Shown: one piece after another, positions 6,582-56,423 of the stretch
Layout: every line of letters begins with the position of its first letter
Position numbering within the stretch: the first letter of the stretch is position 1
Assembly (NCBI GenBank): GCA_039817275.1
Contig: JBCBWB010000001.1
Location: forward strand, 25,344-89,343
Source of the DNA: Cyanobacteria bacterium J06648_1
Lineage (GTDB): Bacteria > Cyanobacteriota > Cyanobacteriia > Cyanobacteriales > Xenococcaceae
Length of the DNA stretch: 64,000 nt
Reading direction: 5' to 3'
Notes under the pieces: model-generated
Database searches by the model: none
Told to the model about the DNA's origin: nothing
The model's input: only the letters and a program-made list of their open reading frames with translations
Made by a program: the position numbers and the translations under genes

Positions 6582-9014
6582 ATGACGGTTATTACAGTTA
6601 CTAACAACTCTGATTACGGCAGCGGAACTCTTAGACAGGCAGTTTTAGATGCTCAATCGGGAGACACCATTAAGTTTGATTCTAGTCTAAGCAATCAGAA
6701 AATCACTCTCAGCAGTGGTCTATGGCTCAACAAAAGTTTGACTTTTGATGGTGCAGATGCTCCCAATCTAACTATTAGTGGCGGTAATACATCCAATATT
6801 TTCTGGATGGGTGGGGTTGATGCCAGTCTAGAATTAAACGTCAAAAATTTGACCCTTGCCGACAGCTACTATGAAGCCGCAGCGGGGGGAGCAATTTATG
6901 CCCAAGACAACAGCATTATCAATATCGATAACGTTGACTTTATTGGTAACGTCTCTGATGGTGGGGCAATCCATGCTCAACAGGGCAGCTACATTACCGT
7001 TAATAACAGCAATTTTGACAGTAACGACGGGGCGAGCATCAGTGATAAAGAATTCGCGACGGGGGCAATTAGTCTTTTTGCTTTTGGCGAACTAAGAGTT
7101 AGCGACAGTACCTTTACTAATAATAAAGGCTTCAATGGTGGAGCAATCCACGTCACCTCTAGCGATCTCTTTGTGGAAAATTCCACCTTTATTGGCAACG
7201 ACTCTACTCCAGGCAAAGATCGAATCAACTATATTCCTGGTGCGGGGGGAGCGATTTATGCCGATGCGGCTACTGTACCTCGCGACGAAAAATTCTATGG
7301 CTTGCTGCCCGAACACGAACTACAGGGCGAGCAACAAGGGGGAATAATTTCCGTCAACAACAGCTACTTTGAAAAGAATAGAGCATCAGGACAGGGTGGA
7401 GCATTGGCACTCTGGGGCTACTCCCAAGATGAGGTCTTTGTTACCAACAATGTCATCGTCGATAACGAAGTCATTCTTAATAAGGACAACATGGCTGAAG
7501 GCGGCGGTGTCTGGCTGATGGGCTACGGTACGGTAGAAAATAATACTATTGCCAACAACAGATCCGAAGACAAAGGTGGTGGACTGTTTATTTGGGGAGA
7601 AGTACCCACAACCGTTACCAATACGACTTTTTCCAATAACCAAGCCGCTAAGGGTGGCGCAATCTACAGCGACATTTGGGATACTCAGCTCAACGTCAAC
7701 GATAGTAATTTTGATTCTAATTCTGCCTCAGTTGAAGGGGGAGTTCTCTACACCAACAAAATTCGTCCTGTTTATATCGAAAATTCTCAAATCAGCAACA
7801 ATACAGCAGCCGACATTGCCAACGTCAACAACAGTAGCGATCTTTCAGGCTTTACTTATGACGCTGGTTCACCCCAAGTAAATCTTGAGTCTCCAGTAGA
7901 GCAAAGTTTCACTCCTGAGCCTATACCCGAAGTGGTTGACCCAGCTCCTGTAGAGCAAAGCTTTACTCCTGAGCCTGTACCCGAAGTGGTTGACCCAACT
8001 CCTGTAGAGCAAAGTTTCACTCCTGAGCCTGTACCCGAAGTGGTTAACCCAGCTCCTGTAGAGCAAACCTATGAACCCAGCAATTTCAATCCTTTCATCG
8101 ATTCGGGAACGGTCAAGTTAAGCTCAGATTCTCAGTTCGCTGGTAAGCCTAACTATACTCCTGCCGATAATACTGGTATGTATGTGTGGCAAACTGGTAA
8201 CACCTGGAATATTGAAGTAACGGGTGACTGGGATGCTTCCCACTTCAGAGGCAAGATCGTTGCCGACCAAGCAATTCAAAATGTAACTGAGCAAAGTTTT
8301 GAAGCTAATGACTCTGTCTGGCACACAGATGCTTCCCACCATTCGATTGAATTTTCCATGATTGTGGGCAACGATTGGACAGACGGCATTTCCTTCGATG
8401 TAGCTTATCAGGCAGATGCGACTCTGTATCTAGAAATGGAAAATGGCGAAGCTTTACCAATTAAAATTGGTTCTGCAATGATCGACGGTTACAATCTTGA
8501 TTCGGTAGTTACCACTCCCACCGTCGAGCCTAGCTACAGTCCTGAGCCTCAGCCCGAAGTGGTTTATGCAGCGCCAGTCGAGCAAAACTATGGTGATAAT
8601 AATTTAATGTCAGCACCTATCTCGGCAGGCTTAGAACTCAATCAGGATGCTCTGTTCTCTAGCAAACCCAGCTATAATCCCAGCGAGCAAAGTGGCTTGA
8701 TTGTCTGGAATACCGAAGATGTTTGGCATATGGAAGCCACGGGTACTCCCGCCACTGCTCACTATCGTGGCAAGATTGTTTCTGATCAGGTGATCGAAGA
8801 TTTATCCACCTTTAGCTTTGAAGGAAGTGATAGCCTTCAGTATGCAGATGACACTTATAAAGTAGTGGAATTCTCGATGATTGTGGCCAACTCTGGCGTA
8901 GACGGTATCTCGTTTAAAGCTCCTGATAATGCTTCGGTGTTCTTAGAGTTGGAAGACAGCAATAATGTTCCTGTACAGGCGGGAACTTCTCTCCAAGAGA
9001 TTAATTTGGTTTAA
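6582..9014 (+). CDS. parallel beta-helix protein with Pmp-type (FxxN / GGAI) repeats, proline-rich linkers and a duplicated C-terminal module
   Basis: 810-aa ORF. The N-terminus VTNNSDYGSGTLRQAVLDAQSGDTIKF is typical of CSLREA / choice-of-anchor-Q type beta-helix proteins. GGAIY/GGAIH tetrapeptides recur, each preceded by FxxN. There is no obvious signal peptide. Confidence 0.7.
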   Translation: MTVITVTNNSDYGSGTLRQAVLDAQSGDTIKFDSSLSNQKITLSSGLWLNKSLTFDGADAPNLTISGGNTSNIFWMGGVDASLELNVKNLTLADSYYEAAAGGAIYAQDNSIINIDNVDFIGNVSDGGAIHAQQGSYITVNNSNFDSNDGASISDKEFATGAISLFAFGELRVSDSTFTNNKGFNGGAIHVTSSDLFVENSTFIGNDSTPGKDRINYIPGAGGAIYADAATVPRDEKFYGLLPEHELQGEQQGGIISVNNSYFEKNRASGQGGALALWGYSQDEVFVTNNVIVDNEVILNKDNMAEGGGVWLMGYGTVENNTIANNRSEDKGGGLFIWGEVPTTVTNTTFSNNQAAKGGAIYSDIWDTQLNVNDSNFDSNSASVEGGVLYTNKIRPVYIENSQISNNTAADIANVNNSSDLSGFTYDAGSPQVNLESPVEQSFTPEPIPEVVDPAPVEQSFTPEPVPEVVDPTPVEQSFTPEPVPEVVNPAPVEQTYEPSNFNPFIDSGTVKLSSDSQFAGKPNYTPADNTGMYVWQTGNTWNIEVTGDWDASHFRGKIVADQAIQNVTEQSFEANDSVWHTDASHHSIEFSMIVGNDWTDGISFDVAYQADATLYLEMENGEALPIKIGSAMIDGYNLDSVVTTPTVEPSYSPEPQPEVVYAAPVEQNYGDNNLMSAPISAGLELNQDALFSSKPSYNPSEQSGLIVWNTEDVWHMEATGTPATAHYRGKIVSDQVIEDLSTFSFEGSDSLQYADDTYKVVEFSMIVANSGVDGISFKAPDNASVFLELEDSNNVPVQAGTSLQEINLV
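7893..8070 (+). repeat. 54-bp in-frame tandem repeat x3 plus a partial fourth copy (PVEQSFTPEPxPEVVDPx linker)
   Basis: Units start at 7893, 7947 and 8001 and are near-identical at DNA level. A degenerate linker copy (VEPSYSPEPQPEVVYAAPVEQNY) recurs at about 8524-8590. Confidence 0.9.
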
Positions 9015-9111: not shown

Positions 9112-9161
9112 ACCAACGGTCAGAGCAGGCTCCGTCGTTTTACGGCGGAGTAATCTCTGAC
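9112..9161. repeat. 50-nt imperfect hairpin element (empty copy of the element at 47153-47355)
   Basis: The outer stem GTCAGAG...CTCTGAC encloses the inner stem CTCCGTCG-TTTT-ACGGCGGAG. It lies between convergent stops at 9014 and 9181. Its reverse complement matches 47153-47169 and 47327-47355. Confidence 0.8.
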
Positions 9162-24893: not shown

Positions 24894-25757
24894 GTGACAG
24901 AGAAAATGTGGCAAAAATTCAGCGCAGTTGGCTTAGGAGTTACGATAACTTTATATCTTACTATTTGTTTATTGCTGCGTTTTAGGCAAACCAAATTAAT
25001 CTTTCTCCCAGACAGCCAAATAAAATCTACACCCCAAGAATACGGCTTGGCTTATCAAGACGTTTGGCTTAAATTAGGGCAAGATCTGGTTCATGGGTGG
25101 TGGATTCCTGCGGCACAGGCTAAAGCTCCTGCCCTGCTGTATTTTCATGGTAACGGTAGTAATAATGGTGATCTGACAGAAATTGCGGCGATCTTTCATC
25201 AGCTGGGTGTCTCTGTACTGTTGATCGACTATCGAGGTTATGGTAAGAGCAGTCCTGTATTTCCCAATGAAACTAGGGTGTATGAAGATGCCGAAGCAGC
25301 GTGGCAATATCTAATTCAAGAGCAGCAAATTGAGCCGCAGCAAATCCTGGTCTATGGGCATTCCTTAGGGGGAGCGATCGCTATTGAACTAGCCACCAAA
25401 CATCCTGATATGGCTGGTTTAATTACCGAAGGAACTTTTACCTCAATTGAAAATATGGCTGGTTTGATGCCAGGAATCAAGCTGTTTCCTCTGGGCTTAC
25501 TGGTAAATCAACGTTTTGACTCTATCACTAAAATTAAGTCTCTAGAAACCCCGATCTTGATTCTCCACGGCACAGCCGATGAGGTTATTCCCCTATTTAT
25601 GTCCGACGAACTTTTTGCCGCCGCACCAGAACCCAAGCACCTAGAAATCTTTCCCGAGGCAGGACATAACAATCTACCTGAGTTTGATCAGGAAAAATTT
25701 TTACTAACTCTACAGCAGTTTATCAATTCAGTAATCAGTAATCAACGCTTAATGTGA
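24894..25757 (+). CDS. alpha/beta hydrolase (BEM46/S9-like)
   Basis: N-terminal TM segment, HGNGSN oxyanion-region motif, nucleophile elbow GHSLGG, LHGTADEVIP and a late GHNN histidine. The real start may be ATG 24906. Confidence 0.75.
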   Translation: MTEKMWQKFSAVGLGVTITLYLTICLLLRFRQTKLIFLPDSQIKSTPQEYGLAYQDVWLKLGQDLVHGWWIPAAQAKAPALLYFHGNGSNNGDLTEIAAIFHQLGVSVLLIDYRGYGKSSPVFPNETRVYEDAEAAWQYLIQEQQIEPQQILVYGHSLGGAIAIELATKHPDMAGLITEGTFTSIENMAGLMPGIKLFPLGLLVNQRFDSITKIKSLETPILILHGTADEVIPLFMSDELFAAAPEPKHLEIFPEAGHNNLPEFDQEKFLLTLQQFINSVISNQRLM

Positions 25758-25924
25758 ATTAGCTTTATAATATGAATCTTAAAAATCCTCACCATTCATG
25801 AAGTGTTGTGATGCCCGCCAATGTAGCCCAGTATATTAAGGCTTGGCTTTTATGTCAGTATCTAAAAACCAGTTTCAACTGTTTAATTTATTGAGCCGAT
25901 AAGTAAGACTCTTGTACGGGAGGA

Positions 25925-26291
25925 GTATCCTAAAGGATACCGCTTCGCATATGAGGAAGTCGTAACGTCCTCATCAGGCGAGCGACCCACAGAGCCGCGG
26001 GCGCATTCGCGCCCAGTGCCAGCGAAGCTGGTCAGATGCTTCGCATCGCGCTCAAAGTTGCTTCGCAACGCTGGCGCAATGCGCCGTTCGCGCGGAAGCG
26101 AAGCTTCCTAGTCGTGCGAGGCCTCTGGCTTCTAGCCCGCCAGGGCGGACTGCCCCGAAGGGGCTACGACGACGATCTGCCGCATAACAAAGGCTTCGCC
26201 TTAGAGCCTCTTTTAGAGGCGATGGTGCAACGCACCGTGCTGCGGCGCAAGGGAATGCGCGAGATTGGGGGTTGGGGGAAAGTTCCCCCAA
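25925..26291. repeat. GC-rich island of at least 14 concatenated mini-hairpins (mosaic of small dispersed modules)
   Basis: Perfect short stems at 25925-40, 25951-74, 25999-26014, 26019-31, 26035-47, 26057-69, 26073-85, 26094-108, 26152-64, 26190-202, 26206-20, 26224-36, 26245-60 and 26272-91. GCGAAGC/GCTTCGC occurs six times. Individual modules recur at 42.9, 46.3 and 47.2 kb. Confidence 0.8.
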
Positions 26292-26385
26292 TACAGATCT
26301 TATCTTTAAAGATAACTTCTATAGGGCAGAAAAAGATGCCAAGTCTTTTATCTAATTCGCATTAGACGTAATCAGTCATCATCAA

Positions 26386-26625
26386 TCACCAAGTTGGATC
26401 TTCATAAAGATTAATCGTCAATTCAGCTTGATCTCCTGGGATAGAGCTGATACAGGCACAGACAGCATCACCATTGCCTAGCTCTACTTCACAGGCATGA
26501 CAAGAACCCATTAAACAGCCAGTAGCGATCGCCACTCCTGCCCTATTTGCTACCTCTAGCATCGGCTCTCCTGGTTCTGCTGTCACGATAATATTATCTG
26601 GTAAAAAGCAAACCTTAACACTCAT
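26386..26625 (-). CDS. small plant-type [2Fe-2S] ferredoxin-like protein
   Basis: 79 aa with a C-x4-C-x2-C motif (GCLMGSCHAC) and a later CAC cysteine. It lies immediately downstream of cobQ on the same strand. Confidence 0.7.
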   Translation of the reverse strand: MSVKVCFLPDNIIVTAEPGEPMLEVANRAGVAIATGCLMGSCHACEVELGNGDAVCACISSIPGDQAELTINLYEDPTW

Positions 26626-37013: not shown

Positions 37014-37409
37014 ATAATGGCAAGTAATTCCGCTCCTTTTATTTTTTTACTGATATAAAGGATAAATGCTAAATCAGACAATTTTTAGATTAATCAAGGC
37101 TTTTGACAGTTAAATATTAGTAGTTAATTTGTAGTGAAATAACTCTAGGCTCTAACTGAAAAAATTTTTAAAGCGCCGTCATTAATAAAAAGTAAGATAC
37201 CCGAACTAAACCTCGACCTGCTCAAGAGATTATTTTTTCTCTCAGGACAATCGAGCTACAAAAACAGCAAAAAACAATACATGGGTTAAAACTGCTGGCT
37301 CTCAATTTCTATCAGAGTTTCTACGCTCTAAGCGTTTGGCAGTCAGCAAATATAGGACTAATCCACCCAAATAGAATAAATTTTTTTCATAAAATTGAGG
37401 CTTAAGACA

Positions 37410-38003
37410 ATGCTAGATAATTTCGGCAGCGATCCTATTTTTACCCCCGAACAAATTCTAGAAAACAGAGGACGTGTAGCAATTTTCATTGACGGTTCTA
37501 ATCTATTTTATGCGGCGCTACAGCTAGGCATTGAGATTGACTACAGCAAGCTTCTATATCGCCTCACTGGTGGCTCTCGACTATTGAGATCGTTTTTTTA
37601 TACAGGGGTTGATCGCACCAACGAAAAGCAGCAGGGTTTCTTGCTGTGGATGCGCCGCAATGGCTATCGTGTAATTGCTAAGGATTTGGTTCAGCTTCCC
37701 GATGGCTCAAAAAAGGCTAATTTAGACGTGGAAATCGCTGTGGACATGATGGCTTTGGTTTCCGCCTATGACACGGCTGTATTGGTCAGTGGCGATGGGG
37801 ATTTAGCCTATGCCGTTGATGCGGTTAGCTACCGTGGTGCCAGAGTGGAAGTTGTGAGTCTGCGTTCGATGACTAGCGACAGCTTGATTAATGTGGCAGA
37901 TCGCTATATCGATTTAGATCAGATTAAAGGAGATATTCAAAAAAGCAACAAGCATAGCGATCCCTATCGCAGCTTTTCTGGTTTTGGAATCCTTGATGAC
38001 TAG
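37410..38003 (+). CDS. NYN-domain (LabA-like) protein
   Basis: VAIFIDGSNLFYA...FFYTG...LDVEIAVDMM...VLVSGDGDLAYAV is the LabA/NYN pattern. I prefer ATG 37410 over TTG 37395. Confidence 0.75.
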   Translation: MLDNFGSDPIFTPEQILENRGRVAIFIDGSNLFYAALQLGIEIDYSKLLYRLTGGSRLLRSFFYTGVDRTNEKQQGFLLWMRRNGYRVIAKDLVQLPDGSKKANLDVEIAVDMMALVSAYDTAVLVSGDGDLAYAVDAVSYRGARVEVVSLRSMTSDSLINVADRYIDLDQIKGDIQKSNKHSDPYRSFSGFGILDD

Positions 38004-39422: not shown

Positions 39423-39725
39423 ATGTTCTCTTACGAAATTACCAATCCGACTGATGCGAGAAATGGTTTTTTTAAACTGCTAGAACAAGTAGCAGAAAAT
39501 CACGAAGTATTTATTGTCAATCGACGTGATGGCGAAAATGTTGCTCTAATTTCTGAGTCAGATTTAACTAGCTTAGTAGAGACAGTTTATCTTCTGCGTT
39601 CTCCTGCTAATGGTCGTCGTTTATTAGATGCCATAGCTGAATCGAGATCGGGCAAAATCAAACCTCAAACTATAGATGAACTAAAACAAGAGTTAGGTAT
39701 TGATGGCAAAGAGGAAGAAGAATAA
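39423..39725 (+). CDS. yefM: Phd/YefM-family antitoxin
   Basis: 100 aa. ...FFKLLEQVAENHEVFIVNRRDGENVALISESDLTSLVETVYLLRSP is typical YefM. It overlaps the downstream toxin gene. Confidence 0.8.
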   Translation: MFSYEITNPTDARNGFFKLLEQVAENHEVFIVNRRDGENVALISESDLTSLVETVYLLRSPANGRRLLDAIAESRSGKIKPQTIDELKQELGIDGKEEEE

Positions 39726-40017
39726 AGATCAGAACAAATCGCTTCAGCCTATCATTAATCGTGTTCCTGGCTTTAGTTCTCAGTTCAAAGAAGATTTGGG
39801 TTGGTGGTTTAGGGAAGATCCGAGGAAAGCTAGTAAAATTTTGGATCTAGTAACAGCAGTAATGCAAGATCCATTCAAAGGCATTGGTAAACCTGAGCCA
39901 TTGAAATATATGGATTCCAACATTTGGTCAAGAAGAATTGACTTGGAACATCGGTTTATTTATCAGGTTAATAAAACTCAAATTGACTTTCTCGCCTGTC
40001 GATTTCACTACGAATAG
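39703..40017 (+). CDS. yoeB: YoeB/Txe-family toxin (mRNA interferase)
   Basis: DPFKGIGKPEPLKYMDSNIWSRRIDLEHRFIYQV...IDFLACRFHYE is collinear with E. coli YoeB (...[31 protein letters not shown]...ACRYHY). It carries a basic ~24-aa N-terminal extension. Confidence 0.85.
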   Translation: MAKRKKNKDQNKSLQPIINRVPGFSSQFKEDLGWWFREDPRKASKILDLVTAVMQDPFKGIGKPEPLKYMDSNIWSRRIDLEHRFIYQVNKTQIDFLACRFHYE

Positions 40018-42895: not shown

Positions 42896-42977
42896 TTTTA
42901 GCTTTTAGCTTTTAGCTTTTAGCTTCTAGCCCGTTTAGGGCGGTCTGGTGCAAAGCGCCTACGCTTTTAGCTTTTAG
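42896..42977. repeat. TTTTAGC heptamer tandem array interrupted by a 34-nt GC-rich hairpin module (42931-42964)
   Basis: Units start at 42896, 42903, 42910 and 42917, with a variant TTCTAGC at 42924. The array resumes at 42965 and 42972. Confidence 0.85.
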
Positions 42978-43197
42978 TAAGGATTCGTGGTTATTTTCTG
43001 TTATTGACCCTTGTGTGGCGAGAAGTCAGTTTAGTGAAGAGTCAGAGCTTAAAAAATGGCTGAAACTGTATCCGCTTGCTTATAAATTAGTATACGAGAG
43101 AGCTATGGCAGCAAATTTGTCAGAGAATGATTGAGCCACAATTTGCCATTCTCAAAATTCAATCGTAAGTTTATTTTAGCCATACCGAGTCACTTCC

Positions 43198-44625: not shown

Positions 44626-44652
44626 TAATTCCCTTGCCTGGTTGAACGGATA

Positions 44653-44701
44653 GTTGATGGTTGATAGTTGATGGTTGATGGTTGATGGTTGATAGTTAAT
44701 A
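44653..44701. repeat. uninterrupted GTTGATG/GTTGATA heptamer tandem array (7 units)
   Basis: Units start at 44653, 44660, 44667, 44674, 44681, 44688 and 44695. The array fills the gap between the convergent stops at 44625 and 44703. Confidence 0.9.
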
Positions 44702-46253: not shown

Positions 46254-46318
46254 CAGTGAACAGTAAACAGTCCTAAAGGATAAGCTTCGCAAATAAACAG
46301 TAAACAGTAAACAGTTAT
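46254..46318. repeat. CAGTAAA heptamer tandem array split by a 23-nt insertion
   Basis: CAGTGAA 46254, CAGTAAA 46261, CAGT(46268-71)|23 nt|AAA(46295-97), CAGTAAA 46298, CAGTAAA 46305, CAGTTAT 46312. Confidence 0.85.
46272..46294. mobile_element. 23-nt mini-hairpin module CCTAAAGGATAAGCTTCGCAAAT inserted inside one heptamer unit
   Basis: Removing it restores the CAGTAAA register. The same module (TCCTAAAGGATA..GCTTCGCA) occurs at 25928-25949. The boundary is ambiguous by 1 nt. Confidence 0.55.
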
Positions 46319-47152: not shown

Positions 47153-47355
47153 GTCACAGATTACTCCGCGCACAAAGCGGAGCTTTGCCAGTCTCCGCAG
47201 CACGTACGTGCAGTCCGCCGCCAAGGCGGCTAGCAAATCTTCGATTTGCGCGAGATGATGAGGGCGGTGCTTACGCACCTGACCGTCCGAAGGACGGCAC
47301 TGGACGCATTCGCGTCTGCGCCTCGCAAACGACGGAGCCTGCTGTGACCGTTGGT
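47153..47355. mobile_element. composite element: arms of the 50-nt hairpin element separated by 157 nt of seven further mini-hairpins
   Basis: The arms 47153-69 and 47327-55 match the reverse complement of 9112-9161 at 16/17 and 28/29 positions. Internal hairpins lie at 47164-82, 47200-11, 47217-30, 47233-49, 47266-79, 47283-97 and 47303-16. Confidence 0.6.
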
Positions 47356-49973: not shown

Positions 49974-51908
49974 ATGCTAATCAACGGTAATGCAGGTAAT
50001 AATAGATTAATAGGTACATCAGGAGATGATACCTTAAATGGTCTGGGCGGTGCTGATAGCCTGGTTGGTAGAGCGGGAGATGATTCCTTAGTCGGAGGAG
50101 GAGGAAATGATACTCTGCGCGGCGGTTTAGGAGAAGATATTCTTTTAGGCGGAGCTGGCAACGATCTAATCAGCTTTAATGTTGGTGGTAAATCCGTTGA
50201 CGGCGGAGCAGGAAATGACACAGTATCGCTCAATTTTGCTCCCGAATCTGATGATTTTACTCTAATTTATAACAGCACCGATGGTGGAGTAACTAGCGAC
50301 GGTATCCTGAGCGGAACTCGTATTGAGGGTGTCGAGCAGGTAAATGTTAGATCTGGTTCGGGTGAAGACAGTATCAACACTTCGGGAGCGTCTATTGGCG
50401 GCACGATTATCACCAACAATGGTGCTGACCTAATTATCGCCAGCGAGGGCGATGATAGTATTGATGGCGGTTCTGGTGATGACACTATCAGTGGTGGTAA
50501 TGGAGACGATAGTATTGACGGCGGAGTCGGCGCCGATATTATTAACGGTCAAGATGGTGATGATGTAATTACCTTTGGCGGAGGTGCCAAAACTGTTGAC
50601 GGTGGTGGTGGAAGCGATCGCATCGTACTAGACTTCTCAAACCTCGATGAAGATTTTGTTCTGACTTACAATCAGTTTGAAGAAGCCAGTCCCACAGTTG
50701 GAGGCATTCTAGACGGTACAGAAATTGAGGAAATTCAGCAGGTTGATGTTGAATCAGGTGCAGGAAACGACCTGATTGATATAGCCGTAGCAACGGTTGG
50801 CAGCACGCTCCTGGGCGGTGCGGGCTTAGATTCTCTAATTGGCGGTTCGGGAGACGATACCCTTGATGGTGGTGCGGATAACGATATCTTTTTTGGTAAT
50901 GCAGGTAGCGATGAAATTATCGGTGGTGGCGGAGACGAAGACGTTGCCGTCTTTGCTGGCAGTGTAGACGACTACGAAATTACCTTGGGCGAAGAAACTG
51001 TAACTTTAGAAATTGATGAGGATATCGATACCTTGACCGATATCGATTTTCTGCGGTTTGATGATGGCGATATCGAAGTTGCAACCGAAGAATTTTTCGA
51101 CCTCGAACAGCGTGCAGAACGCGAAGCTATTAGTGCAGCAGCCCGTGCAGCAGCAGAGGCAGAGGCAGAAGCCGAAGCGGAGGAAGAAGCAGAGGATAAC
51201 GAAGATCCTGATGCTGACGACTCCGTTGAAGATGACGAAGATACTGATGCCGATGCTGATACAGACACCGACGATGAGGATGCTGATGCCGATGCTGATA
51301 CAGACACTAACGACGAAGATGCAGACGCAGAAGAAGATGCAGAACTAGAAGAAGATTCCGACGCTGAAACTTCCGATACAGTACAAGATGTGGATCTAGG
51401 TGGTTTGGTAGATGCTGATGCTACCGATGGTGAAGAAGGTGAACCTGTCTTTCAACTTGTAAATGTAGACGGTTCGAGCCAGTTTTATACCACTAGTGAA
51501 ACAGAAAGAGATTTAATTCTGGAGAGTGATTCTAGTTTTGAATCTAGAGGGGTTTCTTTCCTCGGTGCTGAGGCACCATCAGAGGGTGATGAGTTGGCAG
51601 GGATTTCTTCTGTATCTCGCTTCCTAAATACTGATAATGATACTTATCTCTATACAACAGACGACAATGAGATAGCAGCAATCAACAGTAATCTAGATAA
51701 TTTCGTCTTTGAGGGTACTGCCTACTATGCCTTTGATAGCCAGGAAGCAGGAACTATACCTGTCTATCGCGTTTATAACAGCGAGCTTGACCAACACTCC
51801 TTTACTACCTCGGTAGCAGAACGAGATAGTCTAATCAGTGCTGACTTTGTTCAGCAAGGCGGAGAAGACGGTATTGCTTTCTATGTCGAACCTGCGACCG
51901 AACTATAA
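49974..51908 (+). CDS. RTX-type (GGxGxD nonapeptide) calcium-binding protein with an acidic low-complexity spacer and a C-terminal triple-motif domain
   Basis: Many GGAGNDxL/GGSGDDTI nonapeptides and no signal peptide. A D/E/A-rich block spans about 51130-51400. The C-terminal repeats have the form F/YTT...ERD (QFYTTSETERDLI, YLYTTDDNEIAAI, HSFTTSVAERDSLI). Confidence 0.8.
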   Translation: MLINGNAGNNRLIGTSGDDTLNGLGGADSLVGRAGDDSLVGGGGNDTLRGGLGEDILLGGAGNDLISFNVGGKSVDGGAGNDTVSLNFAPESDDFTLIYNSTDGGVTSDGILSGTRIEGVEQVNVRSGSGEDSINTSGASIGGTIITNNGADLIIASEGDDSIDGGSGDDTISGGNGDDSIDGGVGADIINGQDGDDVITFGGGAKTVDGGGGSDRIVLDFSNLDEDFVLTYNQFEEASPTVGGILDGTEIEEIQQVDVESGAGNDLIDIAVATVGSTLLGGAGLDSLIGGSGDDTLDGGADNDIFFGNAGSDEIIGGGGDEDVAVFAGSVDDYEITLGEETVTLEIDEDIDTLTDIDFLRFDDGDIEVATEEFFDLEQRAEREAISAAARAAAEAEAEAEAEEEAEDNEDPDADDSVEDDEDTDADADTDTDDEDADADADTDTNDEDADAEEDAELEEDSDAETSDTVQDVDLGGLVDADATDGEEGEPVFQLVNVDGSSQFYTTSETERDLILESDSSFESRGVSFLGAEAPSEGDELAGISSVSRFLNTDNDTYLYTTDDNEIAAINSNLDNFVFEGTAYYAFDSQEAGTIPVYRVYNSELDQHSFTTSVAERDSLISADFVQQGGEDGIAFYVEPATEL

Positions 51909-52389
51909 TCAGAAATTACTAACCGCAACAAATTTAATAAATCACTAGGACAGTGAATATAGGCTAGGTGAGGTAGATGCTGGGATTTCTACTTTCCTAG
52001 CTTTTTTTTCGCTCTAAGAATTATTCGATCCAAGTTTGGAGAACTGTCCAATTTTGTGCTGACTGTAGCGAATATTACACTATGAAGATTTCGTGTTGTT
52101 AGAAGATGCTCGACACAAACATGATACAAATACAGGGAAGGCGCTAATCCCCCTAATTAAAAGGTTTCAGGGTTAATATCTCGAAATAATTAGTGAATGT
52201 TTATCTTAACGTTTACAAATTTGACATTGAAACGAATACATTTATTCGGTCTAAGATACCTGTTCGATAAACAAAGGGAATTAGAGGCAAAAGATTTTAA
52301 TTACTGGCAAAATCTCTCCTGAATTTGGAGAGGACGATCAATCCGACATCAAAAGATCCACCAAATCTATCTCAACGACAAACAAAAAA

Positions 52390-54234
52390 ATGGATATCAA
52401 TTTTGGTCAAGTTGTACTGGTTAAGGATATTAATCCCAATGTCACAAATGGCTATTACGGGGGTGTTTATCCCCAAAGCTCTTTTCCAGATGGTCTTATT
52501 GAATTTGATGACCAGCTTTATTTTTCCGCCGACAACGGCGTAAATGGCGATGAACTATTTGTTAGTAATGGAACGGCAGAAGGGACGCAACTGCTGATAG
52601 ATCTTAATCCTGGTTCGAGTAACTATGGCTTTGCCTATAGCTCAACTGTCAGTTACCTGACCGAGTTCAACGACAAGCTTTATTTCTCGGCTAACGACGG
52701 CGAAAGCGGGAGAGAATTATTTGTTAGCGATGGCACAGCAGAAGGTACTCAACTACTAGTAGATTTACGTCCTGGTTCGGGCAATTATGACTACGGTTCT
52801 GGCTACAGCTATAGCTCTTATCCTGGAGATTTGACTGAGTTTAACGGCAGACTTTATTTCTCGGCTGATGATGGTGAAAATGGCAGAGAATTATTTGTTA
52901 GTGATGGTACAGCAGAAGGTACGCAACTGCTAGTAGATCTCAATCCTAATTCGGGCTATGGCTATAATTCTGGTTCTTATCCTGATAACTTTACCGAGTT
53001 TAACAGCAGACTTTATTTCTCTGCGGACAACGGCGAAAGTGGCAACGAAATATTTGTTAGTGACGGTACAGCAGAAGGTACGCAACTGCTGGTAGATCTA
53101 CGTCCTGGTTCGAGCAGCTATGGCTATGATTATGGTTCTAATCCTAGTGACTTTACAGAATTCAACGGTAAGCTCTATTTCGCTGCGGATAATGGTGAAA
53201 GTGGGAATGAACTATTTGTCACTGACGGAACGGCAGAAGGGACTCAGCTACTAGTAGATCTGCGTCCTGGTTCGAGTAACTATGGCTATAGCTACGGTTC
53301 CAACCCCAGCGATCTAGTTGAATTTAACGGTAAGCTTTATTTCACTGCGGATAATGGTGAAAGTGGCAGAGAACTGTTCGCTACGGATGGGACGGCAGAG
53401 GGAACTCAACTAGTTGCCGATTTGCGCCCTGGTTCGAGTAGTTACGGCTATAGTTACGGCTCCGATCCTAGTGATTTAACCGTAGTTGGCGATGAGCTAT
53501 TTTTCTCCGCCCGTAATAGAGAAGTAGGAACTGAACTATTTAAACTAACTTTTGAGGATACATCAATCTCAATTGACGGTACAAATGGCTCGGATAATCT
53601 CTTGGGCGGCGATCGCTCTGAGCAAATTCAGGCTTTGAATGGTCAAGATACGGTTGATAGCGGTGGCGGTAACGATACAATCGATGGCGGTAATGGCGAT
53701 GACTCCCTGAGTAGTTTTTCTGGCGACAACAGCCTAATTGGCAATAACGGCAACGATACCCTCGATAGCGGCGGCGGCAACGATATTCTCAGCGGTGGCA
53801 ACGGTAGTGATGTTCTCACTTCAGGCAGCGGCAACGATAGCTTGAGTGGCGGCGGGAATAACGACACTCTCGATGGGGGAGATGGTATCGATACTTTGTT
53901 TGGGGATAATGGGGATGATCGCCTGGTTGGCGGTAGTGGTGACGACTTCCTGACGGGAGGCAGCGGGAATGACTTTCTCGACGGTGGAATCGGCTTCGAC
54001 AACCTCGAAGGCGGCAATGGAGACGATCTGTTTGTCCTCAGTTCTGGTGATGGGACAGATACGATCACCGACTTTAATGTTAATGGTGGCGATCGCCTTG
54101 GTTTGGCTGATGGACTACAGTTTGAGTTTCTGACTTTCTCTGGCAACGATATTTTATCGGCAGGAGAGGTCTTAGCTAGTCTTGATGGAGTCAATACAGA
54201 ACAGCTAACGGCAGTTCAGTTTCGAGAAATCTAG
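52390..54234 (+). CDS. ELWxxDG-repeat (predicted beta-propeller) protein fused to an RTX calcium-binding C-terminal module
   Basis: Six full ELF(V/A)(S/T)[10 protein letters not shown](V)DL(R/N)PGS units plus a terminal partial one, then GGxGxD nonapeptides. No signal peptide. Confidence 0.8.
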
Positions 54235-54419
54235 TAGCTGGTAGAAGGGGGTTTGCTTCGTCGAATTCATTCTTGAGTAGGCAATCAAGATAATTCAAGA
54301 ATAATTACAAGATCTTTAGTTACTGGCAAAGCTTTCTTAAAAAAGGCGATCGCCCTTTGGGTACGCTGCGCGATCGCACTCAATACAAGTAATTAATTTA
54401 AACTATCTCAAAAAAACAA

Positions 54420-56423
54420 ATGGATACTAATTTAGGTCAAGTCGTATTAGTCAAAGATATTAATCCGATAGTTTCTAATGCAGAAAATGGCTCTTCTAGT
54501 ACTTATGATTCTTTTCCTCAAAATCTTACTGAATTTGACAACAAACTGTTTTTTTCTGCCGACAATGGCGAAAGCGGTACGGAATTGTTTGTTAGTGATG
54601 GCACGGTGGAAGGCACTCAGCTAGTAGTAGACCTCAATCCAGGAGTAGATCCCTTTGGCTATTTTATTTACAGTTCTTCTCCTAGCGATTTTGCAGAATT
54701 GAACGACAAGCTGTATTTCGCTGCTGATAATGGCGAAGATGGCAGAGAATTGTTTGTCAGTGACGGAACCGCAGAGGGTACTCAGCTACTAGTAGATCTC
54801 AATCCTGGTAGTAGCGATTATGGTTTTGCCTACAGTTCTTCTCCCAGCGGTTTGACTGAATTGAACGGCAAACTGTATTTCGCTGCTGATAATGGCGAAA
54901 GTGGTACGGAATTATTTGTTAGTGATGGAACCGCAGAGGGTACTCAGCTACTGGTAGATCTCAATCCTGGCAGTAGCGATTATGGTTTTGCCTACAGCTC
55001 TGATCCTGCCTACATTGCTGAGGTCAACGGCAAACTGTTTTTTGCCGCGGATAATGGTGAGAGTGGTACAGAGTTATTTGTCAGTGACGGAACCGCAGAG
55101 GGTACTCAGCTGCTAATAGATCTTAATCCTGGTAGTAACAATTATGGTTCTGCCTATAGTTCTTTTCCTAGCGGCTTTAATGAATTTAACGACAAATTGT
55201 ATTTCACCGCCAGAGGTGAAGATGGTGGTTTTAATTTATATGTCAGTGATGGAACCGCATCAGGTACTCAAGTAATCTTCGATCTAAATCCAGGTTCTAA
55301 TAGATATCGTGTTCCTAATTCCTACTACAGTGAGCTAATCGTATTTGACGACCAGCTTTATTTCGTTGCGGAAGATAACGAAAGTGGTAGAGAGCTGTTT
55401 GTTAGCGACGGCACCGCAGAAGGTACTCAACTGCTTGTAGGTCTTAACCCTGGGGGCAACGATTATGTCAGCTATAGTTCCGCTCCAGGCGACTTTGCTG
55501 TATTTGACGACCAGCTTTATTTTGCTGCTGATGATGGCGAAAACGGCAGAGAATTGTTCGTCAGTGATGGAACGGCAGAGGGTACTCAATTAGTAGCAGA
55601 TCTCAACCCTGGAGAAGATAATTATGGTACTCGCGGTTCATATCCCAGGTATCTTACTGTTGCTGGCAACGAGCTGTTTTTTAACGCCGATAATGGTGAA
55701 ACTGGAGCTGAACTATTCAAATTAACAATTGAGGATCTGACTCCAGAAGCACCAATATTAATCGATGGTACAAATGGCTCGGATAATCTCTTGGGCGGCG
55801 ATCGCTCTGAGCAAATTCAGGCTTTGAGTGGTCAAGATACGGTTGATAGTGGTGGCGGTAACGATACAGTCGATGGCGGTAATGGGGATGATCGCCTGAG
55901 TAGTTTTTCTGGCAACAACAGCCTAATTGGTAATAACGGCAACGATACCCTCGATAGCGGCGACGGTGCCGATCTTCTAGATGGTGGCAACGGCAGTGAT
56001 GTTCTTAGTTCGGGTAGTGGTAACGATAGTTTGACTGGCGGCGGCAATAATGACACTCTCGATGCTGGCGACGGTATCGATACTTTGTTTGGCGATAATG
56101 GCGATGATCGCCTCTTTGGTGGTGGTGGTGATGATCGCCTCTTTGGTGGCAATGGTAATGACTTCCTCGATGGAGGAATTGGTCACGATACCCTCAACGG
56201 CAGCAATGGTGATGATCTGTTTATCCTGAGAACTGGTGATGGGACAGATACGATCGCCGACTTTAATCTCAACGGTGGCGATCGCCTTGGTTTGGCTGAT
56301 GGACTCCAGTTTGAGTCTCTGACTTTCTCTGGCAACGATATTTTATCGGGTGGAGAGGTTTTAGCTAGTCTTGATGGAGTCAATACAGAACAGCTAACGG
56401 CAGTTCAATTTCGAGAAATCTAG
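54420..56423 (+). CDS. ELWxxDG-repeat / RTX protein, tandem paralogue of 52390-54234
   Basis: Seven full [14 protein letters not shown] units plus a partial one. The C-terminal ~219 aa are collinear with the upstream paralogue without indels (constant offset of 2189 nt). Confidence 0.8.
   Translation: MDTNLGQVVLVKDINPIVSNAENGSSSTYDSFPQNLTEFDNKLFFSADNGESGTELFVSDGTVEGTQLVVDLNPGVDPFGYFIYSSSPSDFAELNDKLYFAADNGEDGRELFVSDGTAEGTQLLVDLNPGSSDYGFAYSSSPSGLTELNGKLYFAADNGESGTELFVSDGTAEGTQLLVDLNPGSSDYGFAYSSDPAYIAEVNGKLFFAADNGESGTELFVSDGTAEGTQLLIDLNPGSNNYGSAYSSFPSGFNEFNDKLYFTARGEDGGFNLYVSDGTASGTQVIFDLNPGSNRYRVPNSYYSELIVFDDQLYFVAEDNESGRELFVSDGTAEGTQLLVGLNPGGNDYVSYSSAPGDFAVFDDQLYFAADDGENGRELFVSDGTAEGTQLVADLNPGEDNYGTRGSYPRYLTVAGNELFFNADNGETGAELFKLTIEDLTPEAPILIDGTNGSDNLLGGDRSEQIQALSGQDTVDSGGGNDTVDGGNGDDRLSSFSGNNSLIGNNGNDTLDSGDGADLLDGGNGSDVLSSGSGNDSLTGGGNNDTLDAGDGIDTLFGDNGDDRLFGGGGDDRLFGGNGNDFLDGGIGHDTLNGSNGDDLFILRTGDGTDTIADFNLNGGDRLGLADGLQFESLTFSGNDILSGGEVLASLDGVNTEQLTAVQFREI

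Follow-up and report, generated by a model that had tools for sequence, protein, structure and literature searches.

A GC-rich island of mini-hairpins beside a cyanobacterial ferredoxin gene as the probable core of a nested, non-coding mobile element

The stretch of DNA that we analysed, referred to here as the window, comprises 64,000 nt of contig JBCBWB010000001.1 from Cyanobacteria bacterium J06648_1 and contains, between an alpha/beta-hydrolase gene and the ferredoxin gene fer2 of a cobQ–fer2 operon, a GC-rich island of short hairpins (25925–26291, no strand assigned), which an earlier note made from the sequence alone had described as a pile-up of small mobile hairpin modules. The island stands out by hairpin count, by heptanucleotide count, and by folding. 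Defining a hairpin as a perfect stem of at least 5 bp closing a loop of 2–6 nt, a mechanical count found 15 in the 367 nt—the note having listed at least 14—compared with a mean of 2.45 ± 1.59 and a maximum of 8 in dinucleotide-preserving shuffles of the island (n = 1000); the island is, moreover, the peak of hairpin density in the window, whose median is 2 per 370 nt. All the hairpins, triloops, and GCGAAGC/GCTTCGC sites previously listed are present, the GAA triloops at 26019–31, 26094–108, and 26152–64, the TTC triloops at 26035–47, 26057–69, and 26190–202, and the heptanucleotide at 25942, 26022, 26038, 26060, 26098, and 26193. Those six occurrences of the heptanucleotide, which correspond to a density of 16 per kb in the island versus 0.14 per kb in the remaining window, compare with 0.28 in shuffles, six being reached in 0 of 5000.

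The GC content of the island is 0.62 versus 0.32–0.36 in the adjoining arms and 0.43 in the whole window, so that the contrast with the surroundings noticed earlier is real. The folding energy, which the note had allowed might prove no better than that of dinucleotide-shuffled controls, gave z-scores of −4.2 for RNA of the plus strand, −5.6 for RNA of the minus strand, and −6.0 for DNA, with no shuffle equalling the island. Two descriptions went too far: instead of nearly every base belonging to a perfect stem, perfect hairpins occupy 208 of the 367 bases (57%); and the island is not free of open reading frames (ORFs), since one of 109 aa (26036–26365, plus strand) and two on the minus strand overlap it, the island ORFs ranging from 61 to 109 aa, though none is credible as a gene.

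The note had furthermore placed the island in plain spacer; we find it instead at the centre of a non-coding unit of 625 bp (25745–26369, no strand assigned), resembling transposable elements of the miniature inverted-repeat kind (MITEs) and lying in phase inside an array of the heptamer CAGTAAT, with the hydrolase gene on one side and fer2 on the other. The unit ends in inverted repeats of 18 bp—ACGCTTAATGTGAATTAG on the left (25745–25762, plus strand) and, on the right (26352–26369, minus strand), a sequence whose reverse complement is ACGTCTAATGCGAATTAG—which match at 15 of the 18 positions and fall exactly at the borders of the indel described below; the terminal repeat is also given as ACGYYTAATGYGAATTAG. 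Between these ends and the island lie two AT-rich arms (neither with an assigned strand), the left one (25763–25924) having a GC content of 0.36 and an identity of about 65–70%, estimated by eye and not computed, to arms beside other genes in the loci L003, L010, and L151, and the right one extending over 26292–26351; a subterminal inverted repeat joins 25838–56 with 26329–47. The hydrolase takes its final three codons and its stop codon from the left terminal repeat, and its C-terminus is unlike that encoded in L011.

For comparison we used relatives whose contigs encode an identical ferredoxin or hydrolase. In two of these, L011 and L005, Fer2 is identical and the flanks are 97.5–98.9% identical to the window, but the unit is absent: the spacer between fer2 and hydrolase measures about 100 nt and consists of a TGATTAC heptamer array broken by a different, small hairpin insert, parts of which we designate modules E and F. 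The same array is broken in the window by the 625 nt from 25745 to 26369, and the heptamer phase is restored when the unit is removed in silico. The ends of the unit recur elsewhere: an identical 21-mer terminal repeat bounds an AT-rich element of about 102 nt, free of any island, at L059:2595–2696 in an unrelated metagenome contig, and in L092, likewise unrelated metagenome DNA, the same terminal repeat ends another element, which holds a heptamer array and a split copy of the module A described below. Because the unit has terminal inverted repeats, an in-phase insertion, and the same ends at other sites, the island is, on this comparison of sequences, the GC-rich centre of an element that is MITE-like and has AT-rich arms; small and non-coding, with terminal repeats, filled and empty sites, and dispersed copies, the unit has the features by which MITEs are recognized, leaving aside a target-site duplication and a cognate insertion sequence.

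Copies or partial copies of the 625-bp unit were found in L151, L010, L003, L059, and L092. The L151 island, like that of L147, was recovered through a protein-database search with translations of the spurious island ORFs. In L151, from the metagenome-assembled genome (MAG) 'Cyanobacteria bacterium J06621_12', GDPD and COR-domain genes flank a copy of the unit whose left repeat and hairpin backbone are those of the window and whose arm is similar; the backbone that L151 and the window have in common comprises module A, an ATGrGGA...TCCyCAT hairpin, CAGGCGAGCGACCCACAG, GTTGCttcGCAAC, GGCGCaayGCGCC, GCGCAagggaaTGCGC, and a 9-bp GGGGGAA hairpin. The core, by contrast, measures about 190 nt in L151, 367 nt in the window, and 419 nt in L004. 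Two blocks (neither with an assigned strand) distinguish the window from L151: a 53-nt block of three hairpins (25997–26049), absent from L151, which occupies the loop of the backbone hairpin GAGCC-tatc-GGCTC; and, in the alignment of the two, a 153-nt block of about eight hairpins (26092–26244) that replaces the CGTAAG of L151. Strain L004, 99.2% identical to the window overall, has a further 52 nt containing three hairpins inside the hairpin GGCGCaatGCGCC (module D). The first of these blocks lies, in turn, within a block of 109 nt in L147 ('J06607_15') that is 96% identical to 25984–26091 and has different flanks. Growth has thus proceeded not by single modules only, as the note had proposed, but also by multi-hairpin blocks of 52, 53, and 153 nt.

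The stems remain perfect while their sequences change. In the L147 block the backbone hairpin adjoining the 53-nt block has GTCGC/GCGAC in place of GTTGC/GCAAC, and further compensatory pairs are ATGAGGA/TCCTCAT to ATGGGGA/TCCCCAT and GGCGC/GCGCC to GGTGC/GCACC; when the imperfect hairpins were examined for G-T versus A-C mismatches as a test of strand, the split was even, among too few cases. The L010 and L003 contigs share the fer2-side half of the unit exactly with the window, then pass into a diverged far half and arm (about 65–70% identity, by eye), and then into different genes; each is either a recombinant between copies or a chimeric join, and either way other copies of the unit must exist.

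The first hairpin of the island is the 24-nt module A, which reads TCCTAAAGGATACCGCTTCGCATA at 25928–25951 (plus strand) and has the conserved form YCCTAAAGGATACCGCTTCGCATA, together with a 23-nt variant, TCCTAAAGGATAAGCTTCGCAAA. A metagenome scan with the pattern CCTAAAGGATAN{1,2}GCTTCGCA returned at least 120 stretches, the first 80 loci of which contain 84 copies with unrelated flanks, usually preceded by a G. In L055, L057, L045, L058, L066, and L067 the removal of 24 nt restores the heptamer phase around the module, whose host arrays include AGCAAGT, GAACAGT, AGGGAGT, AGGGCTG, and GGAGTTC. The 23-nt variant stands alone in the window, at 46271–46293 (plus strand), within an ACAGTAA heptamer array, and occupies heptamer arrays in L038, L045, L072, and L103 as well; a copy of the variant form CCTAAAGGATACCGCTGCGCATAT, at L151:1746–1815, abuts an AGCTATC heptamer array some 100 nt upstream of the L151 unit, an arrangement also seen in the window.

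Module A enters genes, too. An IS1 transposase gene on the Chondrocystis plasmid AP018282.1 is interrupted by it, being exactly 24 nt longer than the Stanieria copy, and three more copies of the module on that plasmid (32872, 38030, and 98916; L148/L149) lie inside annotated, uninterrupted coding sequences, in which they read LKDTASH or CEAVSFR; four of the six frames of the module are without a stop codon. Chondrocystis (Chroococcales) is the only named organism in which we found the module in PLSDB, where no Nostoc plasmid contains it, and a BLAST comparison of the whole island with plasmids returned the module A match alone. With its 4-bp stem, module A folds weakly on its own, and its loop is occupied by about 75 nt of other hairpins in L011, L005, and L147 and by 20 nt in L092. 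A search of the literature for the module sequence returned no match.

Among the recurrences of island modules that had been claimed for the window, TCCTAAAGGATA..GCTTCGCA at 46271 proved highly significant and CTTCTAGCCCG..AGGGCGG.CTG at 42923 significant, and GCATTCGCG at 47306 was at chance level. The second of these corresponds to module B, CTAGCCCGCCAGGGCGGACTG (26132–26152, plus strand), whose other copy at 42926–42947 forms, along with a GGTGCaaaGCGCC hairpin, a 41-nt insertion (42921–42961, plus strand) in an AGCTTTT heptamer array. Module C, CGCAAGGGAATGCGCGAG (26246–26263, plus strand), occurs with at most two mismatches in L070, L091, L108, and L132 and as shorter exact matches in L034, L014, and L081, and, as CGCAAGGGAAYGCGCGAG, at a number of metagenome loci; in other cyanobacteria it often adjoins module A. 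Module D, GAACGGCGCattGCGCCAGCGT (26068–26089, minus strand), at which the extra three-hairpin block of L004 is sited, is a GAACGGyGC-loop-GCrCCAGCGT hairpin with variants GGTGCgaaGCACC in L010 and GGCGCtaatGCGCC in L147 and a copy in L118. In an 11-mer census of the island modules over 414 kb of module-A loci, the only repeats were module A and part of module C; a 20-mer of the backbone matched the GTDB representative genomes once, by chance, inside a Planctomycete coding sequence, and a backbone 21-mer found no match in the JGI metagenomes. A further repeat, GGTCAGCGTTCACGGATAAACCGCAC, is exactly common to L147:196–221, on the J06607_15 contig, and L076:1829–1854, on an unrelated metagenome contig, and lies beside module A or C contexts.

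The tandem heptamer arrays of the window lie at 42896–42980, 44649–44700, 46260–46314, 25725–25744, and 26370–26390, with the units AGCTTTT, GATAGTT/GATGGTT, ACAGTAA, and CAGTAAT. Such arrays look like preferred landing sites, because each small-element insertion seen in the window sits in one.

A second hairpin element in the window (island 2, 47153–47348, plus strand), located upstream of purM between divergent genes, has the outer stem GTCACAG/CTGTGAC and an apical loop enlarged by about 155 nt of mini-hairpins. Its unexpanded counterpart, a two-tier hairpin of 43 nt, GTCAGAG..CTCCGCCGTaaaaCGACGGAG..CTCTGAC, lies at 9119–9161 (minus strand) between Chlam_PMP-repeat and glyoxalase-family genes, and the outer stems of the two constitute a compensatory pair. 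The left arm of island 2, CTCCGC, is followed directly by the complementary GCGGAG, a second CTCCGC occurring further on. Short-read contigs of relatives break off at both islands, 7 of 12 ending inside the 625-bp unit and 8 inside island 2. In the MAG GCA_038531525.1, another left flank, containing a peptidase M50 gene, adjoins island 2 (L021:2581–2776), and a PPC/RTX gene (L003) adjoins island 1; the junctions reflect either true rearrangement at these sites or chimeric assembly.

Taking these results together, we propose, with a probability of roughly 0.7, that the island is nested, selfish, palindromic, non-coding DNA combining the MITE and small-dispersed-repeat types and built up in layers. 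The first two layers, which comparison of the loci shows, consist of the in-phase entry of an element resembling a MITE, bounded by terminal inverted repeats of 18 bp, into the heptamer array between the hydrolase and fer2, and of the GC-rich hairpin backbone that forms the centre of this family of elements and begins with the 24-nt mobile module A. In a third layer, which comparison of the copies likewise shows, short GC-rich hairpins were added, one to eight per block, inside existing hairpins or in place of them, swelling a core of some 190 nt to the sizes seen in the window and in L004. Five cases lead us to infer that the hairpin loop may be the preferred target of such additions. The hairpins are evidently kept perfect through compensatory double changes, as the alignments show, and the cause might be hairpin-templated correction, gene conversion between copies, or selection on a single-stranded form. 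Copies of the unit behave as dispersed repeats, breaking short-read assemblies and sitting where the contigs of relatives continue into different genes. The mobiliser, in turn, would most likely be a trans-acting function, encoded outside the window, that recognizes single-stranded hairpins—the observation that the window contains no transposase held for all the ORFs of the 64 kb—and any effect on the neighbouring genes would be a by-product of the element's giving the hydrolase its stop codon and lying just downstream of fer2. The earlier picture of a mobile pile-up stands, then, in that some small modules are mobile and nested; independent mobility was demonstrated for few modules only.

Several findings weigh against this layered interpretation. 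Neither an autonomous element with the terminal repeats of the unit nor a candidate enzyme was found in the window or in the search of plasmids, against which a terminal-repeat 31-mer gave only noise (Borrelia, Vibrio). A target-site duplication is ambiguous: AATCA flanks both ends of the unit (25740–25744 and 26370–26374, no strand assigned) and might represent a duplication of 5 bp, but belongs to the heptamer and is indistinguishable from its periodicity; the flanks of the L059 element, TTAAC and TTACA, differ from each other, and no single duplication consensus could be derived. The copy numbers of the unit and of the modules are lower bounds. Islands 1 and 2 share an architecture but no sequence above the level of shuffles (similarity score 21 versus 19.4 ± 2.3). 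In the 414 kb of other module-A-bearing DNA and 150 kb of Chondrocystis plasmid no hairpin-dense island was found; therefore, module A is not sufficient for island building. For most of the island hairpins no second copy exists in 0.85 Mb of related sequence; copy-and-paste from an existing module is thus not established for them, and an origin in place is possible. Finally, when L151 is set against the window, conservation is much higher in the GC core than in the AT-rich arms. A MITE would not usually show this, and gene conversion, selection for structure in the single strand, or a function of the core could account for it.

The strongest of the rival explanations is that the hairpins were made where they stand: a break or a stall at a hairpin tip would lead to fold-back (snap-back) synthesis or to intramolecular template switching, with short perfect palindromes newly arising on the end of an older one, so that the islands would be mutational outgrowths of palindromic elements, the same process would keep the stems perfect, and only a few modules, such as A, would truly have transposed. 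In its favour, each stem is different, mostly without a second copy, yet all follow one architecture of 5–6 GC-rich base pairs around a loop of 3–4 nt, and the two islands share no sequence; the GAA and TTC loops number three each, as for strand-symmetric events or loop inversion; the CTCCGC/GCGGAG/CTCCGC of island 2 looks like an inverted duplication; and quasi-palindrome correction would suit stems that stay perfect through double changes in pairs. Modules A, B, C, D, E, and F and the 109-nt block of L147 are, in contrast, common to unrelated loci and organisms, so that copying between sites is needed; nor did we find an obvious local template for the 52-nt insert of L004 or a direct signature of template switching. 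The comparisons demonstrate the import of existing modules for some parts of the island only, and in-place generation of palindromes, by fold-back synthesis or by template switching at hairpin tips, accordingly stays live as a rival or contributing process, even though we consider it improbable as the whole account.

A good deal further down the scale we place a cluster of the type of repetitive extragenic palindromes (REP) and bacterial interspersed mosaic elements (BIME), in which the hairpins would be substrates for cut-and-paste of single-stranded DNA by a Y1/HUH transposase encoded elsewhere, either of the REP-associated tyrosine transposase (RAYT) or of the IS200/IS605 type. Loops of the d(GCGAAGC) type are typical of very stable hairpins of single-stranded DNA, and the clustered, GC-rich, extragenic palindromes of the island, in both orientations and stable as single strands, speak for such substrates; the Chondrocystis plasmid with module A also encodes IS200-family and IS605 OrfB proteins, a matter of co-occurrence only. 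REP/BIME clusters and the related REPIN/RAYT systems resemble the island in that clustering and in being hot spots of rearrangement and insertion, IS1397 and ISKpn1 entering REP loops (PMC3116915, PMC3733652). The stems of the island, however, are diverse and follow no one conserved palindrome consensus; inverted repeats terminate the unit, unlike IS200/IS605 elements and REPINs; no RAYT, IS200, or other Y1/HUH gene is present among the ORFs of the window; and module A, with its short stem, folds weakly alone. We thus rejected a classical REP/BIME cluster, and regard the broader form of the idea as quite improbable.

Least probable of all is that the island constitutes one functional structured RNA—a stabiliser or terminator in the 3′ untranslated region of cobQ–fer2, or a small RNA carried by the element, with helices under selection at the RNA level—which had been the alternative offered in the note: despite a fold that is strongly non-random on both strands, a position directly downstream of fer2 on the minus strand, and a GC core in which L151 and the window agree much better than in the arms, and which shows some compensatory pairs as well as G-U intermediates, the sequence evidence makes a conserved RNA gene unlikely, because the island is absent from close relatives (L011 and L005, with flanks 97.5–99% identical), differs by blocks of 52–153 nt among strains and paralogues, occurs in unrelated contexts (island 2 lying between divergent genes), has loops in strand-symmetric orientation, and covaries at only 2 of 32 predicted pairs among four copies. 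In an Rfam 15 scan a tRNA was the sole hit at the gathering score and nothing credible appeared up to an E-value of 10, and a scan of the island for promoter and terminator consensus sequences gave frequencies at the shuffle level, with no T-tract after the hairpins.

A coding reading of the 109-aa, 79-aa, and 61-aa ORFs was likewise considered and rejected: the 52-nt indel of L004 frameshifts the 109-aa ORF, and the database relatives of these ORFs are ORFs in other islands only. 'Hypothetical proteins' from hairpin islands have been deposited for J06607_15 and J06621_12 (P0001, P0002, and P0003; compare 26036–26365, plus strand, of the window), and are almost certainly non-coding artefacts.

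The comparison of the island with Nostoc small dispersed repeats (SDR) and REP/BIME clusters made in the note is fair as an account of how the system works. Elhai et al. in 2008 reportedly described SDR1–8 of Nostoc punctiforme and relatives, with hairpin potential, nesting, and an association with heptamer repeats. Passages in the papers citing that work (PMC4390886, PMC5861425, and bioRxiv 10.64898/2026.06.24.733823) present small dispersed repeats as tiny (21–27 nt), non-coding, dispersed elements whose precise insertion is recognized from filled and empty sites, and state there that SDR-like repeats occur in Nostocaceae only. Module A resembles them in its length of 24 nt (23 nt in the variant), its dispersal in at least 120 metagenome stretches, and its precise insertion, demonstrated by site comparison, but is absent from all Nostoc plasmids in PLSDB and present in Chondrocystis; for this reason it probably belongs to a family different from SDR1–8. 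A further difference is that the modules here build GC-rich islands of 200–370 nt inside larger elements.

With Nezha and other cyanobacterial MITEs, and with the Correia, ERIC, and RUP elements, the unit shares terminal inverted repeats, a lack of coding capacity, multiple copies, filled and empty sites, a stable predicted fold, an intergenic location, and the capacity to fuse to the ends of ORFs (PMC3184786); it differs from them in a core better conserved than its arms and in its length of 625 bp, large for a MITE because of the GC-rich modular core, whose length differs among copies, from 0 nt up to more than 400 nt. Pneumococcal BOX elements, of structure boxA-boxB(n)-boxC, similarly vary in how many internal modules stand between their conserved ends (PMC3049150). 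In BOX, however, a few conserved modules stand in tandem, whereas the modules of the island are diverse hairpins and nested. The GC clusters of yeast mitochondria, mini-elements that are GC-rich and palindromic, invade a genome that is AT-rich, sit nested inside each other, are polymorphic among strains, and promote recombination, and the palindromic elements of Rickettsia reside in frame inside protein-coding genes. Since host domain and sequences are unrelated, both would offer an analogy of behaviour only, the read-through of module A recalling the latter. What we describe would thus be selfish DNA of a known kind, in a new form and lineage.

Apart from these elements, the window includes three neighbouring RTX (HemolysinCabind) genes (49974–56423), with internal tandem repeats of about 162 nt in 12–13 copies across two of the genes and with near-duplicate 300-nt segments in common (89% identity); 54-nt tandem repeats, 92–94% identical, at 7891–8070 and 8518–8589 inside an 810-aa Chlam_PMP-repeat ORF; a YefM/YoeB type II toxin–antitoxin pair (39423–40017); and an NYN-domain gene (37395–38003).

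How elements of about 24 nt move is a question raised in 2008 for Nostoc and still unanswered. The present lineage offers dated, base-precise events—the 24-nt insertion into an IS1 gene, the internal enlargement of hairpins by 52, 53, and 153 nt between nearly identical strains and between paralogues, and one hairpin in both expanded and unexpanded form within a single window of 64 kb—which make that movement testable, and shows that such elements are not confined to the Nostocaceae but are present also in Chondrocystis and in unclassified 'Cyanobacteria bacterium J066xx' MAGs. In addition, because the islands break short-read assemblies and mark contig junctions, either misassembly or true rearrangement in cyanobacterial MAGs originates at them, and they spawn spurious ORF calls that reach the protein databases. 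As a tentative suggestion, and one that we hold to be doubtful on balance, a trans-acting activity in a clade of non-heterocystous, largely marine cyanobacteria may move 24-nt elements such as module A, perhaps by break-and-copy at hairpin tips, to positions after a G in heptamer arrays, into genes (often in frame), and preferentially into hairpin loops, so that palindromes would grow from within into islands that serve as recombination breakpoints. If that were true, DNA mobility, or else templated mutagenesis, would take a distinct form in these cyanobacteria.

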